Of a DNA stretch of 63,680 nucleotides, positions 17,620-60,072 are shown one piece after another. The stretch comes from a virus (lineage: Duplodnaviria; Caudoviricetes). The position numbers were made by a program, and so were the translations under genes. Within the stretch, counting starts at the first letter, position 1; each line of letters starts with the position of its first letter. The stretch is from positions 1 through 63,680 of IMG/VR virus record IMGVR_UViG_3300020045_004605. One strand, given 5' to 3'. Below the pieces are notes generated by a model. That model had not been told where the DNA came from and ran no database searches. It saw only the letters and a program-made list of their open reading frames with translations.

Positions 17620-17622
17620 GAT

Positions 17623-18075: not shown

Positions 18076-18080
18076 AAATT

Positions 18081-21228: not shown

Positions 21229-21229
21229 A

Positions 21230-21343: not shown

Positions 21344-21673
21344 ATGAATAAGGTTTTAGGATATTTGCCTATTGCGATTTGCGTTTGGTATGTATTGGCG
21401 TTGTTAATGCTTTTGTTTGGAATTGAGTTTTACAAAGACATTTACTATACTGCTGATACTATCGAAAGTTATTGTTGCTTTGTGGTTTTAATACACGGGT
21501 TATTCCATTGGAATAGCTATACTGACTTTACAAAAAGCAGTTGTGTTACAATCGTAGCTTTAGCAATTGTAAATATCATACAGCCTTATTTTAACAATCA
21601 AACGTATTTTTATTTTTACATTAACATATTAGCTGGTAATTTTATTTACGGCATTATTAAAAGCAGAGAGTAA
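21344..21673 (+). CDS. Membrane protein, possible holin
   Basis: Multiple TM segments; near-identical to 55901-56227; upstream of endolysin. Confidence 0.6.
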   Translation: MNKVLGYLPIAICVWYVLALLMLLFGIEFYKDIYYTADTIESYCCFVVLIHGLFHWNSYTDFTKSSCVTIVALAIVNIIQPYFNNQTYFYFYINILAGNFIYGIIKSRE

Positions 21674-22164: not shown

Positions 22165-22634
22165 TACACCAAAAATATAAATCACTTTTAAACGGATACC
22201 ATATTAACACACCTTTACGTTTAGCACACTTCTTAGCCCAAATAGAACACGAAAGCGGTGGTTTTAAGTACTTAACCGAATTAGGGGGTAAATCATACTT
22301 CGATAAATACGAGGGGCGTAAAGACTTAGGAAACACGCAACAAGGCGATGGCTATAAATTCAGAGGGCGTGGTTACATTCAAGTAACGGGGCGCTACAAC
22401 TATTTAGCACTTTCAAAAGATACGGGTATTGATTTTATAAACAATCCCGATTTATTAGCAACCGAAGTAAATGCTATTGTTTCAGCTTGTTGGTTTTGGA
22501 GCAAAAAGAATTTAAACGCTTTAGCCGATAAAAATGATATTGTAGGTATAACTAAACGTATTAACGGAGGTACTACGGGTTTAGAATATAGACGTAAAAA
22601 GTTTGCAAAATGGGAACAAATACTTGCGGTTTAA
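22161..22634 (+). CDS. Endolysin, glycoside hydrolase family 19
   Basis: AHFLAQIEHESGG, GDGYKFRGRGYIQVTGRYNY, ITKRINGG. Confidence 0.95.
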   Translation: MIHQKYKSLLNGYHINTPLRLAHFLAQIEHESGGFKYLTELGGKSYFDKYEGRKDLGNTQQGDGYKFRGRGYIQVTGRYNYLALSKDTGIDFINNPDLLATEVNAIVSACWFWSKKNLNALADKNDIVGITKRINGGTTGLEYRRKKFAKWEQILAV

Positions 22635-22658
22635 ATATATCATTATCACCACATAAAT

Positions 22659-22686
22659 AAAAAACCCCGACTATTAAATCGGGGCT
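22659..22686 (-). terminator. Intrinsic terminator between endolysin and tRNA
   Basis: CCCCGA/TCGGGG stem with A-run; same hairpin at 54162-54190. Confidence 0.7.
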
Positions 22687-22721
22687 TCTCAACTATAACC
22701 AAACATTATGAAAAAATCTTG

Positions 22722-22795
22722 AGCTTTCGAGAGGATTTGAACCCCTGACATCCTGAGTACAAAACAGGCATTCTAACCAACTGAATTACGAAAGC
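22722..22795 (-). tRNA. tRNA-Thr(UGU)
   Basis: GCTTTCG/CGAAAGC acceptor, ATTC/GAAT D-arm, CCTG-TTT-TGT-ACT-CAGG anticodon arm, GGTTCAAATCC T-arm; TAGATTTG -7 box upstream. Confidence 0.9.
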
Positions 22796-22845
22796 GTTTA
22801 CACAAATCTACACCTTTTTTTCATTCCCACAACACTAAATGCTAA

Positions 22846-23562
22846 TTATATTTTTAAATGCGTTAAATAAGCCTTACACGCTTTATAAACCGCTTCTATT
22901 TGTTTGAAATCTTCTGTACCTCTATCAGTTGAATAAACTTCTTTTGATTTAAAGAAAGCGTCCCACTCTTTAATTGTTTTTTCTTTACATCCTATTTGTA
23001 TTAAATCGCCTTTAATAGTAAATGGCCATTTGCAAAATAAAGGAATATAGGCGGTTTCTTTATTTTCGGCATAAAGCAAGTCGGCAGAACGCAAGTTGGC
23101 ATAACTCAAGTTGGCATAACTCAAGTCGGCAGAACTCAAGTTGGCATAACTCAAGTTGGCATAACTCAAGTTGGCATAACTCAAGTCGGCATAACTCAAG
23201 TCGGCATAAAGCAAGTCGGCATAACTCAAGTTGGCATAACGCAAGTTGGCATAACTCAAGTTGGCATAACTCAAGTCGGCATAAAGCAAGTCGGCATAAC
23301 TCAAGTTGGCATAACTCAAGTTGGCATAACTCAAGTCGGCATAACTCAAGTCGGCATAAAGCAAGTCGGCATAACGCAAGTCGGCAGAACGCAAGTTGGC
23401 ATAACTCAAGTTGGCATAACTCAAGTCGGCAGAAATTTTACCCGATGCTAATTCTTGTTTGATAAACTCTTTTACAGTTTCTTTCATTGTATTATTTTCT
23501 GATTCAAACTCAAAAATAACACTACCCGTAAATCTGTTTTTAATTTGGATTTTAATTTTCAT
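22846..23562 (-). CDS. Pentapeptide repeat protein
   Basis: A(D/N)L(S/R/L)(Y/S) repeats. Confidence 0.95.
   Translation of the reverse strand: MKIKIQIKNRFTGSVIFEFESENNTMKETVKEFIKQELASGKISADLSYANLSYANLRSADLRYADLLYADLSYADLSYANLSYANLSYADLLYADLSYANLSYANLRYANLSYADLLYADLSYADLSYANLSYANLSYANLSSADLSYANLSYANLRSADLLYAENKETAYIPLFCKWPFTIKGDLIQIGCKEKTIKEWDAFFKSKEVYSTDRGTEDFKQIEAVYKACKAYLTHLKI
23066..23433. repeat. 15-bp tandem repeat (~24 copies) encoding pentapeptide units
   Basis: T(T/C)GGCATAACTCAAG variants. Confidence 0.95.
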
Positions 23563-27206: not shown

Positions 27207-27262
27207 AGTTTAATTGTTTTTATAAAAGTAGTAATAATTCCAATACGTTTAACAAACTAACG

Positions 27263-27285
27263 TTATTTAGAATGAGTTTAAATAG
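27263..27285. promoter_or_regulatory. Fur-box-like palindrome
   Basis: TTATTTAGAATGAGTTTAAATAG. Confidence 0.6.
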
Positions 27286-27939
27286 TCAGAATAGTTGTGT
27301 TTGTTTTGAATTTGATTTTTTTATAATTCCTAAAGCGGTTTCGAAAATTGTTTTACCCGCTTCATAGTCTACTAAATTACGAGCCATTTTTTGTACTGAT
27401 TGAGTGCCTTTGTATTTTCTAAAATCGTAATTATGAAATTCGCACCATTTATTTAATTCATCTTTACTTTCCATAATAGAGTGTTTCCTTTCGTTTAAAT
27501 TATTAGGTAAATTAAAATTTGTCCAATATAAATGACGTCCTATTTTTTTACCATATATTAAAGGCTTGTAATATGGTATTACGTTTTCAACGCAATATTT
27601 GCCATCAAAATAATTCTCTAAAAATAAAACTTCTTCGTATAGTTTTAAGTCTGGATAAATTGGTATAGTTGTATTTTTTCGTGCAAATCTTGCTCTTGAA
27701 TGACTTGGACAAGGAGGTGAACTCCAAATGAAATCAAATCCTTTAAAATGGTCAAGTAAATATTGGTGCGCATCTGCTACAATTACTTTATCTTTCGGAA
27801 ATCGCTCTTGGTACAATCTCGCAGCTTCGGGGTCTAATTCAACTGCGGTTACCCTTAATTCTATCCCCGCTTCTTTTGCTACTTCATCCCACTTATATCT
27901 ATTTCCACCCAAACAGTCGTAAAGGTTTAATACTTTCAT
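27286..27939 (-). CDS. DNA cytosine-C5 methyltransferase-like protein
   Basis: VLNLY..LGG, WSSPPC and ENV motifs. Confidence 0.8.
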   Translation of the reverse strand: MKVLNLYDCLGGNRYKWDEVAKEAGIELRVTAVELDPEAARLYQERFPKDKVIVADAHQYLLDHFKGFDFIWSSPPCPSHSRARFARKNTTIPIYPDLKLYEEVLFLENYFDGKYCVENVIPYYKPLIYGKKIGRHLYWTNFNLPNNLNERKHSIMESKDELNKWCEFHNYDFRKYKGTQSVQKMARNLVDYEAGKTIFETALGIIKKSNSKQTQLF

Positions 27940-28253
27940 ATACTTCTACTTCTAATCGTTAAAAATTCATTGTTTAGTATTTCATCAATCGTATGCTGTG
28001 AAACGCTTAAAATAAAGCTAATCTCCTCGTTGCTCATATACGGGTGCTCTTCTTTAAAAGCGTAAACCAATAGAGGTTTAATAGGTTTTACCAAAGTCTT
28101 TTTCGGTCTTAAGCTGTCCTGAGTTATAAGCGTTTCAGTTTTATGGTCTACTAAAACGCTGTCAGTAATTTTCCTTAATCGGCTTCTTAATGTGCTTCTC
28201 GGTATTGCGTACTCTTGTGATATTTGCATGATTGTTTTCATAATTCTAAACAT
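27936..28253 (-). CDS. HTH-like hypothetical protein flanking cassette array
   Basis: ISQEYAIPRSTLRSRL; orthologue 46192-46497. Confidence 0.7.
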   Translation of the reverse strand: MFRIMKTIMQISQEYAIPRSTLRSRLRKITDSVLVDHKTETLITQDSLRPKKTLVKPIKPLLVYAFKEEHPYMSNEEISFILSVSQHTIDEILNNEFLTIRSRSI

Positions 28254-28299
28254 TTTTGTTTACTGATTTTTTTCATACTTTGTTTACGTTTTTGTTGAT

Positions 28300-28333
28300 T
28301 TAGTATTATGAAATCATACATATCGGTAAGTTA
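28300..28333 (-). other. attI-like terminal site of array A1
   Basis: TAACTTACCGATATGTATGATTTCATA on - strand; related to 46135, 50030, 53889. Confidence 0.6.
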
Positions 28334-28337
28334 TAGC

Positions 28338-28727
28338 TTATGGCTGTATTTCGTTTTCATCAGGAACTAATCTCAAATCAGAATCTAAAAACCACCACTT
28401 TTTTTGATTATAAACCTCATTCATTTTAGAAACAAATTCTTCTATAATATCTGTTTTTTCTTTGAAGCATAATTCCATATCGTGACTGTCATCATCAGGA
28501 TTACCTTCTGTATCGTAATATCTATCAGTAAGCCATTCAATTACTTCTTCGGATGATATTGAAGCGGAATTAGACTGTTTGTTTGCCACGCATAAATAAC
28601 CGTGATGTGGTTCAAAATCTTCTTCATCTAAATTATCAATGTTTTTTAATCCTTGCATTTCTAAATCTTCATATCCACAAAGAGTATAACCTTGTTTTAA
28701 TGCTTCTTTTACTGTGATTGTTTTCAT
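28338..28727 (-). CDS. Cassette ORF, acidic hypothetical protein
   Basis: Bounded by GTTATAGCTTGTGG / CCATAAGCTATAAC. Confidence 0.75.
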   Translation of the reverse strand: MKTITVKEALKQGYTLCGYEDLEMQGLKNIDNLDEEDFEPHHGYLCVANKQSNSASISSEEVIEWLTDRYYDTEGNPDDDSHDMELCFKEKTDIIEEFVSKMNEVYNQKKWWFLDSDLRLVPDENEIQP

Positions 28728-28762
28728 AATTACGTTTTGTTTTAGTTAACCACCACAAGCTA

Positions 28763-28890
28763 TAACAGCAATTTGTGGTAATTTGGGCATTAGTTATTAA
28801 TTTAATTTTCAGTCTGTATTTTTGTAATCTATCTTAACTCCGAAGTTCAGGTATTTTTTACCCCAAACTACCACAAGTTGCAGTGCGTTA
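28763..28890 (-). repeat. attC-like hairpin
   Basis: GCAATTTGTGGTAATTTGGG / CCCAAACTACCACAAGTTGC inside TAAC...GTTA. Confidence 0.8.
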
Positions 28891-28901
28891 TGCCTCAGCT
28901 A

Positions 28902-29075
28902 CTAAGCAACCGCCAAAGAAACTCGTTTCAAATCGTTTTTAACGTCTAACCAAAAATCAATTTTACTTTGATTAAATTCAGGTAAATTTTCATCTAACAT
29001 TGTATCGATGATTGAATTTGCAATTTCAAATCCGTGTTTTTCGAATAACTCTTGTGCTTTTTTCTTTGAGTTCAT
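28902..29075 (-). CDS. Cassette ORF, hypothetical protein
   Basis: Likely start MNSKKKAQELF at 29075; resembles 51769-51987 family. Confidence 0.65.
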   Translation of the reverse strand: MNSKKKAQELFEKHGFEIANSIIDTMLDENLPEFNQSKIDFWLDVKNDLKRVSLAVA

Positions 29076-29102
29076 AATTTGTGGAATAAAAAGCCGAAGG
29101 CA

Positions 29103-29228
29103 TAACAATATATTGTAGCAATTAAGGCTTTGGTTATTAATTTATTTACTGTTTTGTACTTTTAAGTTTGGGTGTTTAATCGAAGCATAAGGTGTACTTT
29201 TTCTTAACTGCTACAATAATGAACGTTA
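29103..29228 (-). repeat. attC-like hairpin
   Basis: TATTGTAGCAATTAAG / CTTAACTGCTACAATA inside TAAC...GTTA. Confidence 0.8.
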
Positions 29229-29299
29229 TAGGCAATAGGGCATACGTTCTTCGTTTCAACATTTGTGGAAGAAAAAAAAGAAAAAAGCCCACCGCGCTT

Positions 29300-30100
29300 T
29301 TAGAACAGTTGTGGTTGCGATATTCTAATATTAAGTCGTTTCTCTGCATATTTACATTGTTCCTCTGATAATTCACTTCCTAAATAATTTCGTTTCTCAA
29401 TGATACAAGCATTGGCAGTTGTGCCAGTTCCCATAAAGCTATCGTAAATCAAATCGTTTTCTTTTGTATAAAGTAACAATAGTTTTCTAACTAATTCAGT
29501 TGAATAAGTTGCTTTATTCAAATCATTACTTCCATCGTTATTTGATGCTTCAATATAGTTGTAAAAAACATCGTAAAAATCTTGTCCTTTATTTGATGTG
29601 GTTGTAACTTTCTTATTTGTGTTAAAGGTTAGGTATTCAGTTTTTCTTACAAACACAAAAACAAATTCACAAATTCGAGTTAGTTTATTTTTACTTGTTG
29701 TGTTTGGCAAAGCGGTTGTTTTTTTCCAACTAATACAATCAGCAACAGTAAATTCAGTTCGTTTTATTATTTCAGCAATCAGCAACCACATTGTTTCAAC
29801 ACTTTCATTTCCGTATGAAATATTATAAAGCACACAACCATCTTTTTCTAAAATAGTATTGTAGGCATCAAATAACTCAATAGTCCAATCAATGTATTCA
29901 TCACTTGATTTTGTGTCTAAATACTTATCGTATCGCTTATCTTGGCTATAAACACGAACACCATTTACTATTTTGTTGCTCCAATACTCAATTCTACCAC
30001 CTGTATTATAAGGCGGTGAAGTTATTACTGCATTTACTTTACCATCTAATCTTTTCATAGTTAGTAAGCAATCTTCGTTATATATTTTATTTATTTCCAT
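29300..30100 (-). CDS. Cassette ORF: DNA N4-C/N6-A methyltransferase (beta class)
   Basis: ITSPPY catalytic and DSFMGTGTT SAM-binding motifs. Confidence 0.9.
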   Translation of the reverse strand: MEINKIYNEDCLLTMKRLDGKVNAVITSPPYNTGGRIEYWSNKIVNGVRVYSQDKRYDKYLDTKSSDEYIDWTIELFDAYNTILEKDGCVLYNISYGNESVETMWLLIAEIIKRTEFTVADCISWKKTTALPNTTSKNKLTRICEFVFVFVRKTEYLTFNTNKKVTTTSNKGQDFYDVFYNYIEASNNDGSNDLNKATYSTELVRKLLLLYTKENDLIYDSFMGTGTTANACIIEKRNYLGSELSEEQCKYAEKRLNIRISQPQLF

Positions 30101-30167
30101 CTCTCTTTTTTTCTTTTTTTTCTTTAGTGCTTCGATTAAACATTCTGCTAAAAATCCCTACTGCCCA

Positions 30168-30215
30168 TAACACGTGCTATACGCCATTAAAACGAGCGTA
30201 TAGCACCATCCGTTA
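30168..30215 (-). repeat. attC-like hairpin (48 bp)
   Basis: GTGCTATACGC / GCGTATAGCAC perfect arms inside TAAC...GTTA. Confidence 0.8.
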
Positions 30216-30238
30216 TAAAACAGTTTCTAAACTGCTTT

Positions 30239-30376
30239 TTAAAACCTAAGTTCATCAGGTTTATACTCAGTTTTGCAGTCTGAAAAGTCAATCCAAGTAT
30301 CTCTAAGTTTTGACTTGTATACTACTACTTTTTTACCGTTTGCAACAACAGTTGCGTTTTTTGTTCCTTGTTCCAT
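30239..30376 (-). CDS. Cassette ORF (45 aa)
   Basis: MEQGTKNATVVANGKKVVVYKSKLRDTWIDF...; below ORF-track cutoff. Confidence 0.65.
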   Translation of the reverse strand: MEQGTKNATVVANGKKVVVYKSKLRDTWIDFSDCKTEYKPDELRF

Positions 30377-30409
30377 AATTTAAAATATTTAGTGTTTAAA
30401 CCGATTTTA

Positions 30410-30529
30410 TAACATCATGTTGTTTTCAGTCTACGGCTTGGGTTATATCCGAAATGTGTCGGCTCACTTGTTTTTAATTTGTTGTGTTCAGTCTTTAATC
30501 ACGCCCGAAAAGCAACACGCAAGGCGTTA
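30410..30529 (-). repeat. attC-like hairpin (first in array A1)
   Basis: CATGTTGTTTTC / GAAAAGCAACACG arms; 5' end identical to 53099. Confidence 0.75.
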
Positions 30530-30544
30530 TAAATAACTTTACTC

Positions 30545-30606
30545 AAATTTAGTAATTATTTCAATACAAAATACATTTAGGCGTTATTTAGAATGTTTAC
30601 AAATAA
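30545..30606 (-). promoter_or_regulatory. Array promoter with Fur-box-like palindrome
   Basis: TAAATTTG -7 box (30545-30552, -) and TTATTTAGAATGTTTACAAATAA (30584-30606). Confidence 0.6.
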
Positions 30607-30829
30607 ACTTATTGTGTGGGTCAAATTCAAAAGAGAAAAAACCGCCCTCGCTATCAAGGTAACGGAAAATATATTCAGTACCGTGTGTTAACCGTTTGTC
30701 AATCCATACAGCGGGTTTATCCAATACCAAACTTACACCGCTTAATCTGAATGGTCTGCCGTTCTTTGATATTTGCGTATCAAAGTGATTTACATCTATA
30801 TCAAACCCTTGTATCGAAATCTTGTTCAT
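30584..30829 (-). CDS. Conserved hypothetical protein upstream of array
   Basis: Orthologue of 43808-44053 (NGRPFRLSG...FEFDP.NKFICKHSK). Confidence 0.75.
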   Translation of the reverse strand: MNKISIQGFDIDVNHFDTQISKNGRPFRLSGVSLVLDKPAVWIDKRLTHGTEYIFRYLDSEGGFFSFEFDPHNKFICKHSK

Positions 30830-35965: not shown

Positions 35966-36097
35966 TTAAATAACAACCTTTTTAGCCACCCCTTTACTAA
36001 TATACACAAAGGAATTATGCTTAGTTTCTTTTGCCGTTTTGATTGCTAATTGTCTTAACCTATACGTTTGCTCTTGGATTGTTTCAGAGTGTTTCAT
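35966..36097 (-). CDS. Hypothetical protein (43 aa)
   Basis: MKHSETIQEQTYRLRQLAIKTAKETKH...; homologue fragment at 37548-37664. Confidence 0.65.
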   Translation of the reverse strand: MKHSETIQEQTYRLRQLAIKTAKETKHNSFVYISKGVAKKVVI

Positions 36098-37718: not shown

Positions 37719-38249
37719 ATGAAAACACACATTGACAAATTACGCAACCCAAACTATTTAGGTGGTTGGGATTTATTAGACGAGAACGGAAAAACAGTTG
37801 ACCGTATCGTAACTATAAAAGAAATTAAAAACGAGTCTGTTTTTAATCAGAAATCACAAGACGAGCAACAAGTAATTACACTTTTCTTTAATGAGTGTAA
37901 ACCAATTATCTTAAATGCAACTAACCGTAAGACGTTAAAAAAAGTAACGGAAACGGAATACATTGAGGATATGGTAGGTAAACGCATTCAGTTAACTACT
38001 AAAAAAATTAAGGCGTTTGGTGAAATGCACGACGCAATTAGAATTGTAGCTACTAAGGTTGGAGCTGGTTCGGGTTCGGTTGATGTTAAGCCTGTAGATG
38101 CTAAAATTTGTATTGATAAATTAGAAGCGAGCCAAACATTAGCCGACTTACAAACTAATTGGCTTGCTCTTACAAGCGCGGAACAAAACAACGCGGAAGT
38201 ATTAGCTTGTAAAGACCGATTGAAAACAACACTAACCGCTACGAAATAA
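37719..38249 (+). CDS. Recombination-associated protein
   Basis: NPNYLGGWDL, KPIILNATN; adjacent to YqaJ exonuclease. Confidence 0.6.
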   Translation: MKTHIDKLRNPNYLGGWDLLDENGKTVDRIVTIKEIKNESVFNQKSQDEQQVITLFFNECKPIILNATNRKTLKKVTETEYIEDMVGKRIQLTTKKIKAFGEMHDAIRIVATKVGAGSGSVDVKPVDAKICIDKLEASQTLADLQTNWLALTSAEQNNAEVLACKDRLKTTLTATK

Positions 38250-38902
38250 TGAAAGTACACTTTGAAGTTGAACAAGGTAGCCTTGATTGGTTTCTATTAA
38301 AACACGGTAAAGTTGGAGGAACGCGCGCCAAAGGATTGTATTTAAAAACAGATACCCTCTTTTATGACTTGTTATCGGAACACACGGAACGATACGACGA
38401 GGATAACGAGGACGAGGGTTATACTTCCGACGCAATGGAACGCGGTAAGTACTTAGAACCACAAGCGCGGTTGGAGTTAAACGCATACACGGGGTTAGAG
38501 TTTTTAGAATGCGGTTGGATACAGTCAGATATTGAATTATTAGGAATTAGTCCCGATGGTATTACGGCAGACTTAACCGCTCAATGTGAAATTAAGTGTT
38601 TAGGAGCAAAGAACCATTTACGCGCCTGTTTAGGTGGAGAAATCCCACTTGAATATATCCCGCAATGTGTACACGCGTTTACAGTTAACAGTCGTTTGGC
38701 GCGTCTTTTTTTCCTTGCCTACAGACCTGAAAGTCCAAAAGCTATGTTTGTACGCGAGCTGAAAAGGGTTAGTGAGGTTAACATCGGGACACTTGCAAGA
38801 CCTGTGATTAAAACAGTTACAGAGTGTGTAGAATTAAGTAAAGCGGAAGCCTTACGACTTGAAACAGAATTAAAGGAAACAATTAATAATTTAAATTTTT
38901 AG
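38249..38902 (+). CDS. YqaJ/lambda-type exonuclease
   Basis: EQGSLDW, AMERG..LEP, GISPDG, EIKC. Confidence 0.9.
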   Translation: MKVHFEVEQGSLDWFLLKHGKVGGTRAKGLYLKTDTLFYDLLSEHTERYDEDNEDEGYTSDAMERGKYLEPQARLELNAYTGLEFLECGWIQSDIELLGISPDGITADLTAQCEIKCLGAKNHLRACLGGEIPLEYIPQCVHAFTVNSRLARLFFLAYRPESPKAMFVRELKRVSEVNIGTLARPVIKTVTECVELSKAEALRLETELKETINNLNF

Positions 38903-43472: not shown

Positions 43473-43826
43473 ATGAAAAACGACGAAGCATTAATACAAT
43501 CGGAATGTGTAAAATGGTACACTAACACGTATTGCCTTAAACATCATAACCCGCGTGGTCTTATATTTTCAGTCCCTAACGAATTAGGGAAAACAAACGC
43601 TTTACAAACTATGTTAGCCAAAGCTACAGGGTTACTAAGTGGTGTAAGTGATTTAGTTGTAATACACCCGAACAAAGGGCAACTTTTTTTTGTTGAGTTA
43701 AAAACAGCTACAGGCGTACAAAGTGATGCACAAATAGAATTTGAAGAGCGAGTTAACGCGCTCGGTTATGAATATAAACTAATACGCTCATTTGATGAGT
43801 TTAAATTATGGATAAATTTACAGTAG
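43473..43826 (+). CDS. VRR-NUC domain nuclease
   Basis: GVSDL, FVELKT, QSDAQ. Confidence 0.9.
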   Translation: MKNDEALIQSECVKWYTNTYCLKHHNPRGLIFSVPNELGKTNALQTMLAKATGLLSGVSDLVVIHPNKGQLFFVELKTATGVQSDAQIEFEERVNALGYEYKLIRSFDEFKLWINLQ

Positions 43827-44053
43827 AAAAACACTTATATGAGGTTAATCATTTTAACCAACAAACACACGAAAACGGCAGACCATTCAGATTAAGCGGG
43901 ATAAGTTTGGTATTAAATAAACCCGCAGTATGGATTGACAAAAGATTAACACACGGCACCGAGTACATTTTTAGATATTTGGATAAAGAGGGCGGTTTCT
44001 TTTCTTTTGAATTCGACCCAAACAACAAGTTTATTTGTAAACATTCTAAATAA
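43808..44053 (+). CDS. Conserved hypothetical protein upstream of array
   Basis: Orthologue of 30584-30829. Confidence 0.75.
   Translation: MDKFTVEKHLYEVNHFNQQTHENGRPFRLSGISLVLNKPAVWIDKRLTHGTEYIFRYLDKEGGFFSFEFDPNNKFICKHSK
44031..44053. promoter_or_regulatory. Fur-box-like palindrome in gene 3' end
   Basis: TTATTTGTAAACATTCTAAATAA. Confidence 0.6.
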
Positions 44054-44107
44054 CGCCTTGATGTTTTTTATATTAAAATAATTACTATTTTTGATTAAAG
44101 TTATTTA

Positions 44108-44237
44108 TAACGTCCTGTGGCTTTGTCGTCGTTGTGGCGAGTGAACCTAAATCTTAACAAATAATAACTAAATTTTAAAATTATGACTGAACTTTCAAAA
44201 AATGCCCAAGTGCCACAATGCGACAAAACCGCTGTTA
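44108..44237 (+). repeat. attC-like hairpin
   Basis: GTGGCTTTGTCGTCGTTGTGGC / GCCACAATGCGACAAAACCGC. Confidence 0.8.
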
Positions 44238-44866
44238 CAAGCAGTCCTTGTTCTGTTGATTGTTTGGATTTAATTAAAGATTTACTCGTTTTTGAATCCG
44301 AAGATGATTTTTATTTCCTTCAAATTCTCCAACGTAAAAAAGAAAATGCAGAATTAGGAAGTAATTCTCGTGTAATTAAAAATTATTACATAAAATCACT
44401 TCAAAACTTATTAGATAGATATGATGAGATAAAAGCATTATGCAATTTGTTTAATGCAAGAGCATCTTTAAGATTGAATAAAAGAAGTTTTGAAAAGGTG
44501 GGTTTTAAGTCTCTTGAAAATATTGCGAATACAATGCAAAACCGAGAGTACAAACATTTAATGAACTCATACGATAGGGCTTGTGGCTTGCTTAATAACG
44601 AGAAAACTAAAAAATGGATAATTGATATTGATAAGGATGAAGTTATATGGTTAGAACAAATTATAAACGCTGTTCAACCTTGTGAGCCAAATGGAAATAA
44701 GATATTAAAGCAATTGCCTACAAAAAGTGGCATCCATTTAATTACAACTCCGTTTAATGTAATGCAATTCAAAGAGAATTTTAAAAAAGAATTAGAAGCC
44801 TACAAAATGGGCGAAATAAATATTGATATTCATAAAGATAATCCTATCAACTTATACGTTCCGTAG
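44183..44866 (+). CDS. Cassette ORF, possible AEP-fold protein
   Basis: WIIDIDKD and TKSGIHLI resemble AEP motifs I and II; starts within hairpin. Confidence 0.6.
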   Translation: MTELSKNAQVPQCDKTAVTSSPCSVDCLDLIKDLLVFESEDDFYFLQILQRKKENAELGSNSRVIKNYYIKSLQNLLDRYDEIKALCNLFNARASLRLNKRSFEKVGFKSLENIANTMQNREYKHLMNSYDRACGLLNNEKTKKWIIDIDKDEVIWLEQIINAVQPCEPNGNKILKQLPTKSGIHLITTPFNVMQFKENFKKELEAYKMGEINIDIHKDNPINLYVP

Positions 44867-44875
44867 GATTGCTTG

Positions 44876-45002
44876 TAACGTTGAGCATAACGCTAGTTAC
44901 GAGCTAAATAAGCCGAAACTTTCAGATTAAAAACCATCTTAAAAGACACAAAACTAAGTGTAAATTCAAGACCGAAGCCGTAATTAGTGTTATGCATTGT
45001 TA
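44876..45002 (+). repeat. attC-like hairpin
   Basis: GCATAACGCTAGTTACG / CGTAATTAGTGTTATGC. Confidence 0.85.
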
Positions 45003-45047
45003 CAAGCTGGTTATTCTAATTAAAACTAATTTTAAATATAAATAAAA

Positions 45048-45683
45048 ATGAATAAGTATTATCAAACATTACAAAACATCCTTGAAAAAGGTAAAACACA
45101 ATTAAATAAAAAAGGTAATATAAAATACCTTATTAACGAAGTTTTATCTATGGATAAAAAAGACTTATTAAAAATATTTGATGAGCATAAAATAGCAAAA
45201 TATAAATTACAAAAAGAGATTGATTTGTATTTTAAAGGCATTACAGAAATTAAAGAATATAACGAGGCAGGTATTTTTTGGTGGGATTATTGCGCTCCTG
45301 CTTTAATAAATAGCTACCCCACTTATTTTAAAAAGTTACCATTCTTAATCGAAAAAATAAATAAAGAAAAAAGACCATCAAAAAATTACGTTCTATTTAT
45401 AGGGGAGACGGGAGTAAAAACAAATCAATTGCCTTGTTTAAGTTTAATACAGTTTCAAATCAGCGATGACGAACTTTATATAACTGTTTATCAAAGGAGT
45501 GCAGATAGTAATTTAGGGTTACCCTCTGATATTTATCAAATATTTTTAATAAGCGAATTAATAGATATACCATTAGCTAATATTACATTTTTTATAGGGA
45601 ATGCACATATTTATGAAAACAATATTGATAATACTTATGAGTTACTAAAAGGGAACAACCCTAAATTTGAGCTCAATGTTTAA
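45048..45683 (+). CDS. Cassette ORF: thymidylate synthase-superfamily enzyme
   Basis: LPC catalytic Cys, YQRSADSNLGLPSD, GNAHIYEN. Confidence 0.85.
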   Translation: MNKYYQTLQNILEKGKTQLNKKGNIKYLINEVLSMDKKDLLKIFDEHKIAKYKLQKEIDLYFKGITEIKEYNEAGIFWWDYCAPALINSYPTYFKKLPFLIEKINKEKRPSKNYVLFIGETGVKTNQLPCLSLIQFQISDDELYITVYQRSADSNLGLPSDIYQIFLISELIDIPLANITFFIGNAHIYENNIDNTYELLKGNNPKFELNV

Positions 45684-45691
45684 CTTGCTTG

Positions 45692-45761
45692 TAACGTTAA
45701 AAATAAACGATGGTGGCGTATGTGGTTAGTAGATTCCGCCACTATTGTTTATTGATTGTTA
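45692..45761 (+). repeat. attC-like hairpin (70 bp)
   Basis: AATAAACGATGGTGGCG / CGCCACTATTGTTTATT. Confidence 0.85.
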
Positions 45762-45813
45762 GCACTTCGCCTTTTTATTTACAAACAAATATTAATTTTT
45801 AAAACAAAATATA

Positions 45814-46125
45814 ATGACAGGAAAATATTTAATTACCACAGATGCGTGGTTTTATGGAGCAGACGGCAAACAATATAAATCCGTTTGGGGAGAAGTTGAA
45901 ATTGTTAGCGATGCAATTTTAGGAATAAAAACAAATGTTAGAAGTTCTAATTGGTTTGCAAAAGTTAGCGGAGAAAAAAATCACGTTATAATAGCTGGTT
46001 GCCAAATCCATTATGCTGTAAAAACAGAAGAAAAACCACATACAGAATTAACTGCCGATTATACAATTGAAGTAGGAGAAGTCAAAAATTATAATCGTCC
46101 GACTTCTATTTATGTTGTTGAGTAA
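45814..46125 (+). CDS. Cassette ORF, hypothetical protein
   Basis: 103 aa bounded by GTTAGCACTTCGCCTT / AAGGTGAGTGCTAAC. Confidence 0.75.
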   Translation: MTGKYLITTDAWFYGADGKQYKSVWGEVEIVSDAILGIKTNVRSSNWFAKVSGEKNHVIIAGCQIHYAVKTEEKPHTELTADYTIEVGEVKNYNRPTSIYVVE

Positions 46126-46134
46126 GGTGAGTGC

Positions 46135-46174
46135 TAACTACCTGATAGGTATGATTTTGTCATACCTATCGGTA
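46135..46174 (+). other. attI-like terminal site of array B1
   Basis: TAACTACCTGATAGGTATGATTTTGTCATACCTATCGGT, identical at 53889. Confidence 0.65.
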
Positions 46175-46191
46175 AAAAATGTAAATAAAGC

Positions 46192-46497
46192 ATGAAAACA
46201 ATCCCACAAATATCAAAAGAGTACGGAATCCCGAGAAGTACTTTAAGAAACCGTTTAAGGAAAATAACAGATAGCGTTTTAGTAGACTATAAAACCGAAA
46301 CGCTTATAACTCAGGATAGCTTAAGACCTAAAAAGACTTTGGTAAAACCTATTAAACCGCTTTTAGTTTACGCATTTAAAGAAGAACATCCATATATGAG
46401 TAACGAAGAGATTAGCTTTATTTTAAGCGTACCACGTCATACGATTGATGAAATACTAAACAATGAATTTTTAACGATTAGAAGTCGCACTATTTAA
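46192..46497 (+). CDS. HTH-like hypothetical protein
   Basis: Orthologue of 27936-28253. Confidence 0.7.
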   Translation: MKTIPQISKEYGIPRSTLRNRLRKITDSVLVDYKTETLITQDSLRPKKTLVKPIKPLLVYAFKEEHPYMSNEEISFILSVPRHTIDEILNNEFLTIRSRTI

Positions 46498-46552
46498 ACT
46501 CATTCTAAATAACGTTAGTTTGTTAAACGTATTGGAATTATTACTAAATTTG
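46490..46552 (+). promoter_or_regulatory. Fur-box-like palindrome plus -7 box
   Basis: CTATTTAAACTCATTCTAAATAA; TAAATTTG at 46545. Confidence 0.6.
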
Positions 46553-48207: not shown

Positions 48208-48323
48208 TAACGTTCTACGGCTACACGTCCGTTGCGTTCAAAGAACTGAGTACTCTCGGCTAAGCTAAAACGTGAAAGTTAAACTAATATAAACAAAATA
48301 GCAATGGCGTGTAACCGTTGTTA
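48208..48323 (+). repeat. attC-like hairpin
   Basis: ACGGCTACACGTCCGTTGC / GCAATGGCGTGTAACCGT. Confidence 0.8.
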
Positions 48324-48339
48324 TAAGCAGTAGCGGATT

Positions 48340-48570
48340 ATGAAAAATTTAAAATTATTTGTCAAATTATTTTTTGCTTTACTATTAGCGGAATTAATTG
48401 TTTTTTTATTTGTAGTATTAATGGTTTCATTTGCTAATTGGCAAATTATAGAATTACCTGAATTTAACGAACAAACTTTTAAAAATATAAGGATAATATT
48501 AGCCTGTAATTTATTTGGAACGATATGTTATTTTCCATTATTGATAATGATGAATAGTCGTCTTAAATAA
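48340..48570 (+). CDS. Cassette ORF, two-TM membrane protein
   Basis: Bounded by GTTATAAGCAGTAGC / GCTATTGCTTATAAC. Confidence 0.7.
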   Translation: MKNLKLFVKLFFALLLAELIVFLFVVLMVSFANWQIIELPEFNEQTFKNIRIILACNLFGTICYFPLLIMMNSRLK

Positions 48571-48591
48571 ATCTAACGTAGCTATTGCTTA

Positions 48592-48689
48592 TAACAGGCG
48601 CGCTTTGCGAAGGCTTTGGAGCTTGCTCAAAGCGTTAGTTAAGGGAAGTGCGCCTGTTAAGGAAAAGGCGTTTGCGCATTTTCCTTAAC
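48592..48689 (+). repeat. Atypical GC-rich hairpin plus ORF-less mini-cassette
   Basis: TAACAGGCGCGCTT/AAGTGCGCCTGTTA then GTTAAGGAAAAGGCG-TTTG-CGCATTTTCCTTAAC. Confidence 0.7.
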
Positions 48690-48813
48690 GTTATCAGGCT
48701 TTGTGTCTGTTGCGTAAAAGAAAACCAAAACATTAATTAAACACTAAACATTACAGATTATGACTAAACATTCAGAAAACACCGAGCCAAGCAATAGCAC
48801 AAAACCTGTGTTA
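48686..48813 (+). repeat. attC-like hairpin
   Basis: CAGGCTTTGTGTCTGTTGC / GCAATAGCACAAAACCTG. Confidence 0.8.
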
Positions 48814-49188
48814 GCAAATCGGCTTTTTAAATTCCGTGCTTGGGTAAAATAACAAAATAGAATGATTAAAGTTTTTGGATTTAACGAACATTTAGTTTTT
48901 GAACAAACTTGGGATTCTCCAAGTATTAAAGAAAATATCTTTGAAATTGAAGATTGCCATATAATGCAGTTTACAGGATCAATTGATAATAAAGGAAATG
49001 AAATTTTTGAAGGTGATATAGTTAGATTGCCTGATAGTTTTTTCCCAAGAGATAGACCAATTATTTTCACAGATTATGGCAGTTGGTACATTGGAAAAAT
49101 TGGAATAGGGTTTGACCAAATGAAAGCTGACGGATTTGTAGAATGCGAAGTTATTGGAAATGTTTTTGAAAATCCTGATTATTTATAA
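48760..49188 (+). pseudogene. Cassette ORF: YopX family protein with in-frame stop
   Basis: ATG 48760...FKFRAWVK-TAA(48850)-QNRMIK...MQFTG...EVIGNVFENP in one frame. Confidence 0.75.
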
Positions 49189-49209
49189 TGTACGTCATAA
49201 GCTGTTTGC

Positions 49210-49337
49210 TAACGTTTCGTGGCTTTATTTAGTAGCGGAATTGTACAAAATAAAGTTTACATAAAAATTAAAGATTACCGACTAAAAACAACTATTAAAT
49301 TAAAAAACAATCCCGCTATTGAATAAAACCATTGTTA
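49210..49337 (+). repeat. attC-like hairpin
   Basis: GTGGCTTTATTTAGTAGCGG / CCGCTATTGAATAAAACCAT. Confidence 0.8.
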
Positions 49338-49369
49338 GCATTAGTGCGGATATTTAAAACTAAAACGTA

Positions 49370-49654
49370 ATGAGAAAAAACATGATTTTAACATCACTAG
49401 CAATGATGATGGCGGCACAAGAACAAGGATTGAGATTTGATAGAGAGGAAGAAATAGAAAGAATGAAATCTAAAAAAGAACCTAAAAAGATAATCCCTAA
49501 CGGTTGCAAAGAATATCATTTTACAAGAAGTGGAAGATTTGACACAACAGAAAATATGTGGAACGATATTGATTATATTTTTACTTGTGTTGCTTCAAAC
49601 GATAAAAATGCGGTTAAGAAGTTCGATAAATTTTCTTATGAGAACAATTTGTAG
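49370..49654 (+). CDS. Cassette ORF, hypothetical protein
   Basis: Bounded by GTTAGCATTAGTGC / GCATTGATGCTAAC. Confidence 0.75.
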   Translation: MRKNMILTSLAMMMAAQEQGLRFDREEEIERMKSKKEPKKIIPNGCKEYHFTRSGRFDTTENMWNDIDYIFTCVASNDKNAVKKFDKFSYENNL

Positions 49655-49663
49655 CATTGATGC

Positions 49664-49752
49664 TAACGTTTTGCGTATATGTGCAATACGCTAATAAACA
49701 TTTGTTATTAATTTAAAGTTTCTTTCCTGCGTATTGCACATATACGCTGTTA
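49664..49752 (+). repeat. attC-like hairpin with perfect 19-bp arms
   Basis: GCGTATATGTGCAATACGC / GCGTATTGCACATATACGC. Confidence 0.85.
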
Positions 49753-49775
49753 TAAGCTGATAAAAATTACAGATT

Positions 49776-50015
49776 ATGGAACGAAAATATTTGATTACAC
49801 AAGAACAGTTAGAGCAAATTGAGCATTACAAAAGAATGTTTGAATTAAATGCGGATTTGGTTAGAGATTTATGTAACTCTGAAAAAGATGATGTTGTTTA
49901 TGGATTTGAGTTAGGCAAGATGCACTCGCATTTAAGAGATTGCTTTATAGAAATGATGGAGTTGGAAGGCGAAATTAGAAACCAAAAAGTTGTTGATGAA
50001 CCGAAAAGCGAGTAA
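49776..50015 (+). CDS. Cassette ORF, hypothetical protein
   Basis: Bounded by GTTATAAGCTGATAAAAATTAC / GTAATTTTTATTTGCTTATAAC. Confidence 0.75.
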   Translation: MERKYLITQEQLEQIEHYKRMFELNADLVRDLCNSEKDDVVYGFELGKMHSHLRDCFIEMMELEGEIRNQKVVDEPKSE

Positions 50016-50029
50016 TTTTTATTTGCTTA

Positions 50030-50065
50030 TAACTATCTAATAAATATGATTTTGTCATACATTAT
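50030..50065 (+). other. attI-like terminal site of array B2
   Basis: TAACTATCTAATAAATATGATTTTGTCATAC. Confidence 0.55.
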
Positions 50066-50094
50066 AAACAAAAAGTAAAATAAAGTATGAAATT

Positions 50095-53027: not shown

Positions 53028-53090
53028 TTATTTAGAATGATTTTAAATTAATGATAAATGTAATTAGTATTGAAAATATTATTAAATTTG
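53028..53090 (+). promoter_or_regulatory. Array promoter with Fur-box-like palindrome
   Basis: TTATTTAGAATGATTTTAAATTA; TAAATTTG at 53083. Confidence 0.6.
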
Positions 53091-53181
53091 TGTTTAAATA
53101 ACGCCTTGCGTGTTGCTTTTCGGCTTGGACTGAAACAAAACCACGCTTCGGATATAAATTAACCTTAACAAATATAAAACA

Positions 53182-53451
53182 ATGGATAAATTAAAGACTA
53201 CAGAAAAAGCTGAAAACAACATGCTGTTAGCGACTGTTTATTTCAAGACTTATAATGTAAAATCATTATGGGCGGGAAAATACGCTCATACAAAACACGG
53301 ATTTACAAGTTCAATCTTAACCGCTATTTGGTGGTTTATTACTTGGTCTATTATTGAAGCTATTAGAGTTTTGAGGCTTAATAAATATCATTACGGAAAT
53401 ATATTCGGGATTGGCAAAAAGAAAACCGATTGTTACGGACGTTTACTATAA
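53182..53451 (+). CDS. Cassette ORF, membrane-associated hypothetical protein
   Basis: Starts inside hairpin loop. Confidence 0.65.
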   Translation: MDKLKTTEKAENNMLLATVYFKTYNVKSLWAGKYAHTKHGFTSSILTAIWWFITWSIIEAIRVLRLNKYHYGNIFGIGKKKTDCYGRLL

Positions 53452-53458
53452 TAGTTTA

Positions 53459-53583
53459 TAACGTTTCGCTTGTATGGTTAGTGCGGAAAAATACGCCGAA
53501 ACATTTCATATATAACTGACCACACAAGTACAAAATCATATTAAAATTTAAAACTAATACCGCATTAATTATACAAGCTGTTA
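53459..53583 (+). repeat. attC-like hairpin
   Basis: GCTTGTATGGTTAGTGCGG / CCGCATTAATTATACAAGC. Confidence 0.85.
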
Positions 53584-53615
53584 GCATTAGTGCGGTTCTT
53601 AAAACTAAAATTATT

Positions 53616-53873
53616 ATGCAAAATTACATTAGATTATTAAGCTACGAAAATGCTGAAAAAGTAATAAAATTTGTTAATTCTTTAAATAACTACGATGATT
53701 ACGCTTGTATAACTAGTGGTGGTGTTAGTTTGAAATCAACTGAAGAAAATCATCCTAAAATATTAGATTATATAAAATCATTAAATGTTAGGTTTGAATT
53801 AACTTCAAAACATCCCGAAGCAGTAAATAAAGAAATCGTTTCTAATTTACGAAATGCTGGTATTATAGAATAA
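53616..53873 (+). CDS. Cassette ORF, hypothetical protein
   Basis: Same cassette ends as 49370-49654. Confidence 0.75.
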   Translation: MQNYIRLLSYENAEKVIKFVNSLNNYDDYACITSGGVSLKSTEENHPKILDYIKSLNVRFELTSKHPEAVNKEIVSNLRNAGIIE

Positions 53874-53949
53874 ACGTAGCATTGATGCTAACTACCTGAT
53901 AGGTATGATTTTGTCATACCTATCGGTTTTTCTATCATACATTATCTAC

Positions 53950-54310: not shown

Positions 54311-54868
54311 ATGACAACAAATCTTATTTACGCCCTTAGAGATTCAAGAAATGACGCTTATTTTTATGTAGGTAAAACTACTGTAGGTATTAAAAGACCC
54401 TTAAAACATTTAACAAAATCACACAATAAAGAAGTAAACAACCATGTTAAGCTTTTAAAAGATTTAGGGCATAAAACATTCGTTGATATTTTAGAGGAAA
54501 ACATAGATTTAAATTCCCTTTGCGAAAGAGAAAAACATTGGATAAATTACTATTCTGAAATATATGATTTATGCAATAAAAAAGATTTTTATAGCGAAAG
54601 GGAAAATAGCGTTATTGATATTCAAAACATAGATACTGAAGAAACAAATAAAATACTATTTCTATTAAAAAACATACCTAAAATAGTTTCTAATAAACGA
54701 AAATATTTATCAATAACTCAATCTAATTTAGCTTCTGAAAGTGGTTTAAATAGAAGCACAATAACTCAAATAGAAAAAGGACAAACTATAACAATATCGT
54801 CTTTAATAAAAGTTTTAGAGGTTTTATCTAATAGTGAAATTAAAAACGAAAAAGTTAGATTAAAATGA
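54311..54868 (+). CDS. GIY-YIG nuclease domain + XRE HTH protein
   Basis: LIYAL...FYVGKT...R...H, EREKHWI; ITQSNLASESGLNRSTITQIEKG. Confidence 0.75.
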   Translation: MTTNLIYALRDSRNDAYFYVGKTTVGIKRPLKHLTKSHNKEVNNHVKLLKDLGHKTFVDILEENIDLNSLCEREKHWINYYSEIYDLCNKKDFYSERENSVIDIQNIDTEETNKILFLLKNIPKIVSNKRKYLSITQSNLASESGLNRSTITQIEKGQTITISSLIKVLEVLSNSEIKNEKVRLK

Positions 54869-59541: not shown

Positions 59542-60072
59542 ATGGAAGTTTGGAAAAATATTGAAGGATTTGAAAACTATCAAGTTAGCGATTTAGGAAG
59601 CGTTAGAAATGTTAGAAAAAACAAATTGCTAAAAGGATGTAAGGATAAAGATGGTTATTTAATTTCTACTTTTAGAAATAATAATGTAAAAAAAGTATTA
59701 AAATTTCATAGATTAGTTGCATTACATTTTATTCCAAATCCTGAAAATAAACCGCAAGTAAATCATAAAAAAGGAATAAAAATAGATAATAGAGCAACTG
59801 AACTAGAATGGTGTACTAATTCAGAAAATCAAATACATGCATATGTAATTGGTTTAAAAACAGGTAGAAAAGGCGAAAAATGTAATTTTTATAATTTAAA
59901 AGGTAAATTAAATTTTAATACAAAAAAAGTCGTAAACATTAAAACTAATCAAGTTTACGACTGTGCAAAAGATGTTTCTGATTTTTTAGAGTACTCTCAC
60001 GTTTCTTTTATAAAACAACTAAATGGAAACAATATAAATAAGACAGATTTTAGATATTTACCCTCTGATTGA
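59542..60072 (+). CDS. NUMOD4-HNH homing endonuclease
   Basis: EVWKNIEGFENYQVSDLG, HRLVA, VNHKKG..DNR...LEWCT..EN. Confidence 0.9.
   Translation: MEVWKNIEGFENYQVSDLGSVRNVRKNKLLKGCKDKDGYLISTFRNNNVKKVLKFHRLVALHFIPNPENKPQVNHKKGIKIDNRATELEWCTNSENQIHAYVIGLKTGRKGEKCNFYNLKGKLNFNTKKVVNIKTNQVYDCAKDVSDFLEYSHVSFIKQLNGNNINKTDFRYLPSD

Follow-up and report, generated by a model that had tools for sequence, protein, structure and literature searches.

The 63,680-base stretch of phage DNA considered here (the window) is the whole of one IMG/VR virus record, IMGVR_UViG_3300020045_004605, and this account concerns an array of small genes separated by long imperfect hairpins, array B1, at 44,098-46,174 of that record. 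The window consists, on comparison with itself by BLAST, of two related phage-like segments that are mirror-oriented about ~37.1 kb. Segment A (1 to ~37.1 kb) has structural genes on the + strand at ~2.3-22.6 kb and early genes on the - strand at 25.9-37.1 kb, and segment B (~37.1-63.7 kb), mirrored and apparently partial, has early genes on the + strand at 37.2-50.6 kb followed by leftward genes. A short inverted match (35967-36082 against 37663-37548, 82%) lies near the segment junction at 36.8-37.2 kb. A preliminary description of this DNA spoke of the same locus in two phages; the locus does occur twice, array A (28254-30583, - strand) being the counterpart of B1, but what is present is a pair of related mirror segments in one record, and their head-to-head arrangement may have arisen in assembly, from two phages that occurred together. 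Whether or not the record is chimeric makes no difference to the comparison of the loci. Among named phages those most closely related are virulent siphoviruses of Flavobacterium, available in culture, from the genera Lillamyvirus and Muminvirus.

Both arrays lie, as had been proposed, between orthologous backbone genes. Upstream of B1 is a gene for an 81-amino acid (aa) protein (43808-44053, +; orthologue of 30584-30829, -) that is 77% identical between A and B and belongs to no Pfam or PHROG family, and downstream is a gene for a 101-aa protein (46192-46497, +; orthologue of 27936-28241, -) that is 92% identical and has weak matches to helix-turn-helix (HTH) Pfam families. In the self-comparison the flanking DNA is 86.6% identical over 239 nucleotides (nt) on the left (30525-30763 = 44112-43874) and 89.1% over 302 nt on the right (27940-28241 = 46493-46192), and the interiors, 28254-30524 and 44113-46191, share no high-scoring segment pair (HSP). 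The left boundary is exact, the HSP stopping at 44112, which is the G following TAAC. On the right BLAST homology restarts only at the start codon of the HTH gene; when the ends of the four arrays in the window are aligned (46120-, 28345-, 50014- and 53874-) the invariant positions begin exactly at TAAC, and there is no conservation upstream of it. This terminal TAAC occupies 46135-46138 in B and 28333-28330 in A. The left backbone terminates ..GTTATTTATAAC and the right backbone opens T-ACCTGATAGG..., and the claim that homology stops at the first TAAC and resumes at the terminal site is thus borne out.

Ahead of the first hairpin of B1 is a leader module (44041-44107, +) made up of ..TCTAAATAAC|G, a TAnnTTTG box at 44086-44093 and AAAGTTATTTA, with homologues at ~30596-30530 (-) in array A and at 53028-53098 ahead of a further array, B2. 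Both A and B1 start, as had also been noted, with an identical 16-mer, AAAGTTATTTATAACG (44098-44113, +, and 30540-30525, -), just past the TAnnTTTG box, and such boxes precede arrays B1 (44086), B2 (53083) and A (30551, -). TAnnTTTG is the consensus of the Bacteroidetes -7 promoter box. Since the box stands ahead of the arrays and is found in none of the 13 hairpins of the window, the cassettes appear to be promoterless, and the leader box appears to be the sole promoter box serving B1. A second copy of the leader was observed elsewhere: a 58-bp stretch (27229-27286 / 46489-46546) that is 100% identical between A and B, where the neighbouring genes are only 82-89% identical, holds ..TCTAAATAAC|G and a TAnnTTTG box and lies downstream of the HTH gene and, in B, ahead of a YopX gene.

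Three units, each a hairpin followed by an open reading frame (ORF), make up B1. Their hairpins were scored with R1, a covariance model built from an alignment of 33 hairpins. Hairpin 1 (44108-44237, +, 130 nt; 89.9 bits, a training sequence) holds the ATG, at 44183, of the next ORF and is 87% identical to a hairpin of phage sniff9-1, the homology ending at GTTA with an unlike ORF after it. The first ORF (44183-44866, +, 227 aa) is bracketed by GTTACAAGC (44234-44242) and GCTTGTAAC (44871-44879), flanks that are complementary at 6/6 positions, and one metagenome contig ends at 44879, that is at TAAC|. It matches phrog_14949, of unknown function, over residues 25-227 only and has no Pfam match. 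Hairpin 2 (44876-45002, +, 127 nt; 84.4 bits, a training sequence) has a DNA fold of -26.6 kcal/mol and is followed by a thymidylate-synthase-like ORF (45048-45683, +, 211 aa; PF00303, E 6e-19; phrog_160) with flanks GTTACAAGC / GCTTGTAAC that match at 5/6 positions. Hairpin 3 (45692-45761, +) is a short form of 70 nt that lies outside the training set (27.8 bits, E 0.004), and it precedes an ORF of unknown function (45814-46125, +, 103 aa; phrog_22562, E 4e-43) bracketed by GTTAGCACT and AGTGCTAAC, DNA homologues of which occur in F. columnare and Cellulophaga phages. Array A has hairpins at 30410-30529, 30168-30215, 29103-29228 and 28763-28890 and ORFs at 30239-30376 (45 aa), 29300-30100 (an N6/N4 DNA methylase, PF01555, E 1.6e-35), 28902-29075 (57 aa) and 28338-28727 (129 aa), all on the - strand, the last two belonging to no family. 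The cassette contents given earlier therefore hold for the 45-aa ORF, the methyltransferase and the two hypothetical genes of A and for the thymidylate-synthase-like and hypothetical genes of B, but the label "AEP-like" (primase-polymerase) for the 227-aa ORF was rejected, as neither Pfam nor PHROGs supports it and no primase-polymerase signature is present.

Each inter-cassette spacer holds a long imperfect hairpin, mostly of ~126 nt, that starts TAACG and ends TGTTA. A hairpin detector returned 108 such elements in 1.14 Mb (the window and 84 related loci) against 8 after shuffling, with 12 in the window, 15 in sniff, 14 in lillamy and 10, 9 and 7 in the related loci L016, L019 and L014. The 47 distinct hairpins (at least 10% different from one another) have a median length of 126 nt and a range of 48-194 nt, with a minor class of 48-74 nt. 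RNAalifold applied to 33 hairpins predicted 21 pairs, 15 of which show compensatory double changes, indicating that the structure of the hairpin is under selection. TAAC and GTTA are invariant in 33/33, an asymmetric 4-nt 5' bulge follows TAACG, and the TAACG strand keeps a G.T wobble at two positions (in 33/33 and 30/33 hairpins); the mismatches on that strand comprise 67 G.T and 39 A.C, but conserved positions dominate both counts, which are not decisive for the strand. At E ≤ 0.023 model R1 detects 13 elements within the window, four of them outside the training set and all on the local ORF strand, and these elements make up array A and the three B arrays (44108-46173, 48208-50070 and 53099-53927). 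At the gathering threshold Rfam matches only a tRNA in the window, and nothing relevant to the hairpins; a sub-threshold match of the arrays to a plant microRNA family was treated as chance.

In the window and in phage sniff9-1 each ORF is bracketed GTTA-y ... y'-TAAC, where y and y' are complementary to each other and differ between cassettes. When the hexamer that follows GTTA was matched against the reverse-complemented hexamer preceding the next TAAC, 59 pairs from consecutive phage hairpins matched at a mean of 5.22/6 positions, 35 of them perfectly, whereas the two flanks of one and the same hairpin matched at 1.99/6 (n=67, 2 perfect) and permuted partners at a mean of 2.31 (maximum 2.92), the observed mean being reached in 0/2000 runs. 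Removal of duplicates left 39 unique cassettes with a mean of 4.79/6 (20 perfect, 30 with at least 5/6), as against a mean of 2.16 and a maximum of 2.82 in 2000 permutation runs. Where the rule fails, the pair in most cases straddles a hairpin that escaped detection or the end of an array. Bacterial loci, described below, behave in the same way: 87 pairs have a mean of 5.06/6 with 45 perfect (permutation maximum 2.71), compared with 2.43/6 for the two flanks of one hairpin (n=170). Complementarity between core and inverse core was historically used for locating the crossover of integron cassettes. The flank rule would be expected if cassettes exist as circles, in which y'-TAAC and GTTA-y extend the stem, and if such a circle is opened at one end of the site, and the sequence of the flanks is accordingly read here as an integron signature, that of a circular cassette which would be cut inside its own hairpin.

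The HTH protein as a query gave no relative of the backbone locus among viral contigs, and two scans of metagenome contigs for that locus returned nothing. A search with an alignment of the 81-aa protein gave two distant loci (L085, 4590-4650, and L086, 5420-5480) in which the same promoter is kept and is followed by different genes in each contig, with hairpins absent, and so the locus is variable even without the cassette system. As the same-backbone comparison of A and B could not be extended, cultured relatives carrying the same element family were used instead. Elements are absent from most of 80 IMG/VR loci with a gene for an exonuclease homologue, and a generic listing of inverted repeats on seven such loci yielded nothing comparable.

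The phages sniff and lillamy are 99% identical and differ by whole units bounded by overlaps of TAACGTT or TAACGTyCGAGTGCTT. One extra unit (hairpin and ORF) in lillamy relative to sniff has TAACGTT at both sides, and two extra units in sniff relative to lillamy, one of them a methylase, are bounded within TAACGTyCGAGTGCTT. Locus L019 lacks the stretch corresponding to 6175-10496 of sniff and here the crossover can be narrowed to ATAACG, whilst in L016 one block is translocated with one junction at 3' ..TTGTTA. Across seven cultured Flavobacterium phage arrays, 77/146 HSP ends are in the 24 nt with which a detected hairpin begins, a class that makes up 4.7% of positions; a further 11 are at the 3' base of a hairpin, 13 within one and 45 elsewhere, and many of the last are terminal TAAC|T sites or hairpins missed by the detector. 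Merging the ends of HSPs of at least 90% identity in the same arrays gave 87 junction zones, 63 of which have TAAC[GT] at the expected offset, as compared with a mean of 12.1 and a maximum of 22 for random placement.

Metagenomes provide a second view of the locus itself. Contigs of four public runs, from four studies, were compared with 43800-46500, the runs being contigs only and none of them covering more than 10% of sampled words, so that stretches without contig cover are uninformative. The comparison gave 24 listed loose ends and 25 more. Ten of the 24 listed are no more than 3 nt from a boundary of a hairpin or of the terminal site (seven boundaries in all), where ~0.4 would be expected by our own arithmetic. 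Those listed include ends at the 5' cores, at 44107-44109 (four contigs), 44879, 45691 and 46138, and ends at the 3' ends of hairpins, at 44237/44238 and 45002; in the vicinity of hairpin 3 loose ends occur before 45685 and 45691. In run X1 the end of the 103-aa cassette is followed after 46138, that is after TAAC|, by unlike sequence that replaces the terminal site, and in another run contigs span hairpin 1 and the 227-aa ORF and stop at TAAC| (44879). These data agree with the suggestion of a variable locus that is site-specific, its breakpoints falling at TAAC cores, and a random distribution of breakpoints in other genomes, which had been named as the refuting outcome, occurred neither in the seven cultured phage arrays nor in the metagenome contigs. 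From the sequences on both sides of the breakpoints the moving unit would be a hairpin with its downstream ORF and y'-TAAC, the cut probably falling at TAAC|G.

The array is closed by an element that is not a hairpin. In B1 it is at 46135-46173 (+) and consists of TAAC|T and a conserved ~35 nt (..ATA..TATGATTT..T.ATAC), of which there is a 100% identical copy at 53886-53927. A TAAC|T element of this kind closes all four window arrays and the arrays of the cultured phages, phage array ends including TTACCGATATGTA, TACCTGATAGG, TATCTAATAAATATGA and TACAATATTACATGA. It resembles the interval between array and recombinase gene in eight bacterial loci, with which it shares AAC|T-N5-ATA (e.g. TTACTTATATGTA). 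The phage terminal element sits where attI does in the integron orientation, and by this resemblance it is a putative attI-like site.

The same hairpin family is found in bacteria. An exact pattern taken from the consensus, with 21 specified bases, was scanned against 596 Gb, for which ~8-9 chance matches would be expected on a rough calculation, and at least 120 bacterial genome loci were obtained, nearly all Bacteroidota among the matches listed; these include Flavobacterium, Pedobacter, Chitinophagaceae, Chryseobacterium, Riemerella and others, and also Flavobacterium sp. LMO8, a strain that comes from the same study as the related phage isolates. Detailed analysis of arrays covered 80 of the at least 120 loci, in stretches of up to 8 kb, and 126 nt was by far the commonest hairpin length (75 elements). 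At E ≤ 1e-5 model R1 matches 123/151 sampled Flavobacterium genomes, several of which have runs of matches over 20-28 kb. The bacterial ORFs lie opposite to the TAACG>TGTTA strand in 82/87 spacers, which is the classical ORF-then-attC layout, and it follows from this layout that the TAACG strand would be the integron bottom strand and TAAC|G the R' crossover.

A tyrosine recombinase gene accompanies the bacterial arrays. A search of five array-bearing genomes with TIGR02249 gave one best match in each, a protein of 345-385 aa, which directly adjoins the array in 4/5 genomes and is co-directional with the cassette ORFs; the fifth is at a contig end. Loci on Flavobacterium/Chitinophagaceae chromosomes with an array and this Xer-like recombinase are G003:C12 275623-284569, G006:C2 60493-70855, G004:C1 276204-285190 and G007:C32 13072-23045, in the last of which 16 hairpins at 13072-21622 adjoin a recombinase gene at 22227-23045. 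A homologue lies within 10/80 of the pattern-found loci, and all of five further Flavobacterium genomes contain one (40-74% identity), in one case only as an 89-aa fragment. The array-adjacent protein scores 213-228 bits with NF040815 (XerA / "integron integrase"; cut-off 220). In the phages, tblastn with the bacterial recombinase found nothing, and Pfam (30 window ORFs) and PHROGs (10) revealed no integrase, resolvase or transposase, the only nuclease-type ORFs in these scans being GIY-YIG/HTH, HNH, VRR-NUC and YqaJ. All that the window phages have in common with lillamy is structural proteins, a protein like single-stranded-DNA-binding protein, a 59-aa protein and methylases. As the phages have no tyrosine recombinase, the simplest hypothesis is that the recombinase of the Flavobacterium host acts in trans on the phage sites.

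We consider it likely that the locus is a phage-borne cassette array of the integron type, with a promoter leader, promoterless cassettes, an attI-like end and a host recombinase acting in trans. Each cassette would be one attC-like hairpin (TAACG, arms and loop, TGTTA) with the ORF that follows it, ending in y'-TAAC, and site-specific recombination would add, remove or swap cassettes by a crossover within TAAC|G, the invariant sequence at the hairpin's 5' base, which in integron terms would correspond to the R' box on the bottom strand once folded. It would proceed by way of a circular cassette in which y'-TAAC and GTTA-y lengthen the stem of the hairpin. The enzyme would come from the Flavobacterium host, the chromosome of which has arrays of the same family beside an Xer-like tyrosine recombinase, and the cargo (DNA methylases, the thymidylate-synthase-like enzyme and small unknowns) would fit counter-defence and accessory roles early in infection. 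In the cultured phages this cargo is rich in methylases, with four or five DNA methylases per array, in agreement with the anti-restriction reading offered for phage CALINs (clusters of attC sites lacking an integron integrase; PMC9892861). The anatomy, the flank rule, the positions of the breakpoints and the homology of the phage sites to the bacterial arrays beside the recombinase are observed directly, whereas we infer the circular intermediate, the exact position of the cut, the identity of the recombinase and the occurrence of recombination during infection.

A number of observations weigh against this interpretation. No circular cassette or excision joint was seen in the public runs, which are contigs only. 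Phage ORFs lie on the same strand as the hairpin in 50/57 spacers, with none opposite and 7 unclear, so that their polarity is inverted relative to the bacteria. A search with 39 phage cassette proteins against 0.62 Mb of bacterial array loci gave only partial methylase matches, on two contigs of metagenome-assembled genomes, and these near-absent matches together with the inverted polarity do not support direct traffic of cassettes between host and phage. The PF00589 tyrosine recombinase profile matched 0/5 of the window and four related complete phage genomes (control 14/14). With TIGR02249 the bacterial recombinase itself reaches 202 bits (cut-off 265), its match being split in two with model positions 185-237 left out, and it has 23 residues where VchIntIA (2a3v) has 66, with an unbroken alignment to XerA (5hxy), from which it follows that it is without the IntI-specific domain and is not a canonical integron integrase. 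At the breakpoints, 8 of the 24 junction zones without TAAC[GT] are at 3' TTGTTA| and others are inside hairpins or in the backbone. Several homologous hairpins precede unrelated ORFs, so that exchange also takes place at the 3' end or through homologous recombination, and the mosaic probably owes something to ordinary recombination of this kind within hairpins. The 7-16 nt overlaps at junctions cannot by themselves separate site-specific from microhomology-mediated events.

These last points bear on the best of the alternative explanations, which we nevertheless regard as unlikely, namely that the hairpins are conserved regulatory repeats (terminator, leader) akin to the promoter-stem-loop repeats (PeSLs) of T4-type phages and that cassettes are shuffled by homologous or microhomology recombination between conserved stretches of the repeats through the phage's own recombination genes, with no site-specific enzyme involved. 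Published accounts describe PeSLs as elements that flank variable ORFs, mediate insertions and deletions and yield mini-circles (PMC2839356, PMC4122927). The junction overlaps here do consist of conserved hairpin sequence, some breakpoints are at the 3' end or inside hairpins, and the window encodes a YqaJ-type exonuclease (38249-38902). Homologous exchange, however, leaves the cassette-specific complementary flanks unexplained, the junctions at terminal sites have TAAC alone in common, and the hairpins of the window are devoid of the promoter box. Breakpoints also favour the 5' core over the 3' end (63 against 8 zones), and in bacteria the same hairpin family adjoins a tyrosine recombinase.

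A second alternative, to which we attach a very low probability, is that the hairpins act in the transcript, in processing, stability or the start of translation, with GUUA-y/y'-UAAC looping out the ORF and the variability being ordinary mosaicism. In the phages it is the sense strand that bears the conserved, G.U-compatible wobbles, the hairpins are located in 5' leaders, and 9/46 distinct hairpins hold in their loop the ATG that opens the downstream ORF. In the bacterial spacers, by contrast, the hairpin is antisense to the ORFs in the 82/87 noted above, so that the fold is independent of the message strand, which points to a role at the level of DNA; moreover breakpoints coincide with the cores and there is no Rfam family match. 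The least probable alternative is "peel and paste" by an HUH/Y1 transposase of the IS200/IS605 kind, a single-stranded circle being inserted 3' of TAAC with GTTA as guide: insertion 3' of a fixed tetranucleotide beside a subterminal hairpin is IS608-like (IS608 inserts 3' of TTAC) and the strand asymmetry of the hairpin fits, but the window phages and lillamy share no candidate gene beyond the proteins named above (no search aimed at Y1 transposase families was made) and the gene consistently beside the bacterial arrays is that for the Xer-type tyrosine recombinase.

Start codons within hairpin loops were observed in the window at 44183 and 53182 and in locus L001 at 4078, 6222 and 9510, and at these sites the 3' arm and GTTA core are thus translated. 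A hairpin-encoded N-terminal peptide is common to the 227-aa ORF and a methylase of lillamy (18/21 residues), and since the family profile of the 227-aa ORF begins at residue 25 the hairpin seems to supply the start codon and ~20 residues.

Segment B has two further arrays. Array B3 (48208-50070, +; terminal TAAC 50030-50033) has hairpins at 48208-48323, 48592-48660 (a variant), 48686-48813, 49210-49337 and 49664-49752. Between the second and third of these is an "empty" cassette (48656-48691) consisting of GTTAAGGAAAA and TTTTCCTTAAC, an 11-bp perfect inverted repeat with the two copies ~12 nt apart. An ATG in the hairpin at 48686-48813 opens a 30-codon frame (48760-48852) that ends ..FKFRAW, the usual start of YopX, and a YopX-like ORF (48862-49188) follows in another frame, so this may be a frameshifted fusion. 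Array B2 (53028-53927, +) has its box at 53083, hairpins at 53099-53229 and 53459-53583, ORFs at 53182-53451 and 53616-53873 and a terminal site at 53889-53927. Elsewhere in the window a gene for a pentapeptide-repeat protein (22846-23562, -), with internal tandem DNA repeats at 23066-23435, adjoins a tRNA-Thr gene (22721-22795), and two homing-endonuclease-like ORFs, GIY-YIG/HTH at 54311-54868 (+) and HNH/NUMOD4 at 59542-60072 (+), each run against the surrounding gene direction.

Integron-type sites in phages are not in themselves new. The main text of Qi et al. (2023; PMC9892861) reports a screen of 10,705 phage genomes that gave 17 attC clusters (clusters of attC sites lacking an integron integrase, CALINs), virulent phages included, one of them in Polaribacter phage P12002L with two methylases; IntI1-dependent recombination was shown there and an anti-restriction reading offered, and Flavobacterium is unmentioned in that main text. 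Integrons are considered rare in Bacteroidetes, for which the IntegronFinder 2.0 preprint gives only integrase-only (In0) elements as earlier records, together with one complete integron, in Salinibacter. The literature consulted contained no description of the present hairpin family or of its Xer-like partner, the supplements of PMC9892861 being outside its scope, and the paper describing the cultured phages makes no mention of a hairpin, palindrome, indel or variable region.

The likeness to integrons and CALINs extends to most features of the array. The sites are imperfect palindromes with invariant AAC...GTT ends in which fold is conserved over sequence and asymmetric features are confined to one strand, the crossover would be at one end of the site, and the start of each cassette is complementary to the inverse core of its own site. 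The cassettes appear to be promoterless and to stand behind one promoter, and a putative non-palindromic primary site closes the array. The lengths of attC sites range from 57 to 141 nt and that of the present hairpins falls in this range; methylases among the cargo recall the CALIN of P12002L. The differences are that there is no IntI, the recombinase beside the bacterial arrays being without the IntI-specific domain and co-directional with the cassettes; that the length of the phage hairpins is tightly centred on 126 nt; that the phage ORF follows the hairpin on the equivalent of the integron bottom strand, with some ORFs starting inside the hairpin; and that the phage arrays reach considerable length, with up to ~15 sites in a phage of 38 kb, and may be several to a genome. 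Phage CALINs are therefore already published, and this family differs from them in recombinase type, site length and inverted polarity of the phage ORFs.

Two other systems invite comparison. According to Arbiol et al. (2010; PMC2839356) and Comeau et al. (2014; PMC4122927), PeSLs too are stem-loop repeats that flank small, variable early genes, mostly of unknown function; close relatives differ by indels and replacements that stop at the repeats, and circles of one ORF and one repeat have been invoked. They combine promoter and terminator and recombine by homology, however, whereas the hairpins here are without a promoter box, vary in sequence whilst keeping their fold, have ORF-specific complementary flanks and are linked to a bacterial tyrosine recombinase. 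The mechanism favoured here, an integron-type array served by a host enzyme, also has a parallel in elements of the CTX type. In CTX phage-type elements a whole phage genome is integrated at the chromosomal dif site in an Xer-dependent manner via folded single-stranded DNA. In both cases a host Xer recombinase would act in trans on a hairpin of phage DNA, but here it is gene-sized cassettes that would be exchanged within phage arrays.

One hairpin family organises most of the early accessory genes in a whole group of virulent Flavobacterium phages that are in culture. Provided that the sites function as we suppose, they would provide a mechanism for the gene-by-gene exchange of anti-restriction and accessory genes among phages, they would extend integron-type recombination to a recombinase without the IntI hallmark, and they would constitute a ready experimental system, hosts and phages being already in culture. 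A broader proposition is put forward more tentatively, as possible rather than probable: that Bacteroidota, including most Flavobacterium species, have a large integron-like cassette system that integron surveys have all but overlooked, with ~126-nt hairpins and an Xer-type recombinase without the IntI domain, and that virulent phages of these hosts, with their own arrays of mirror polarity and an attI-like site, may rely on the enzyme of the infected host for passing counter-defence genes, orphan methylases for example, from one phage to another.

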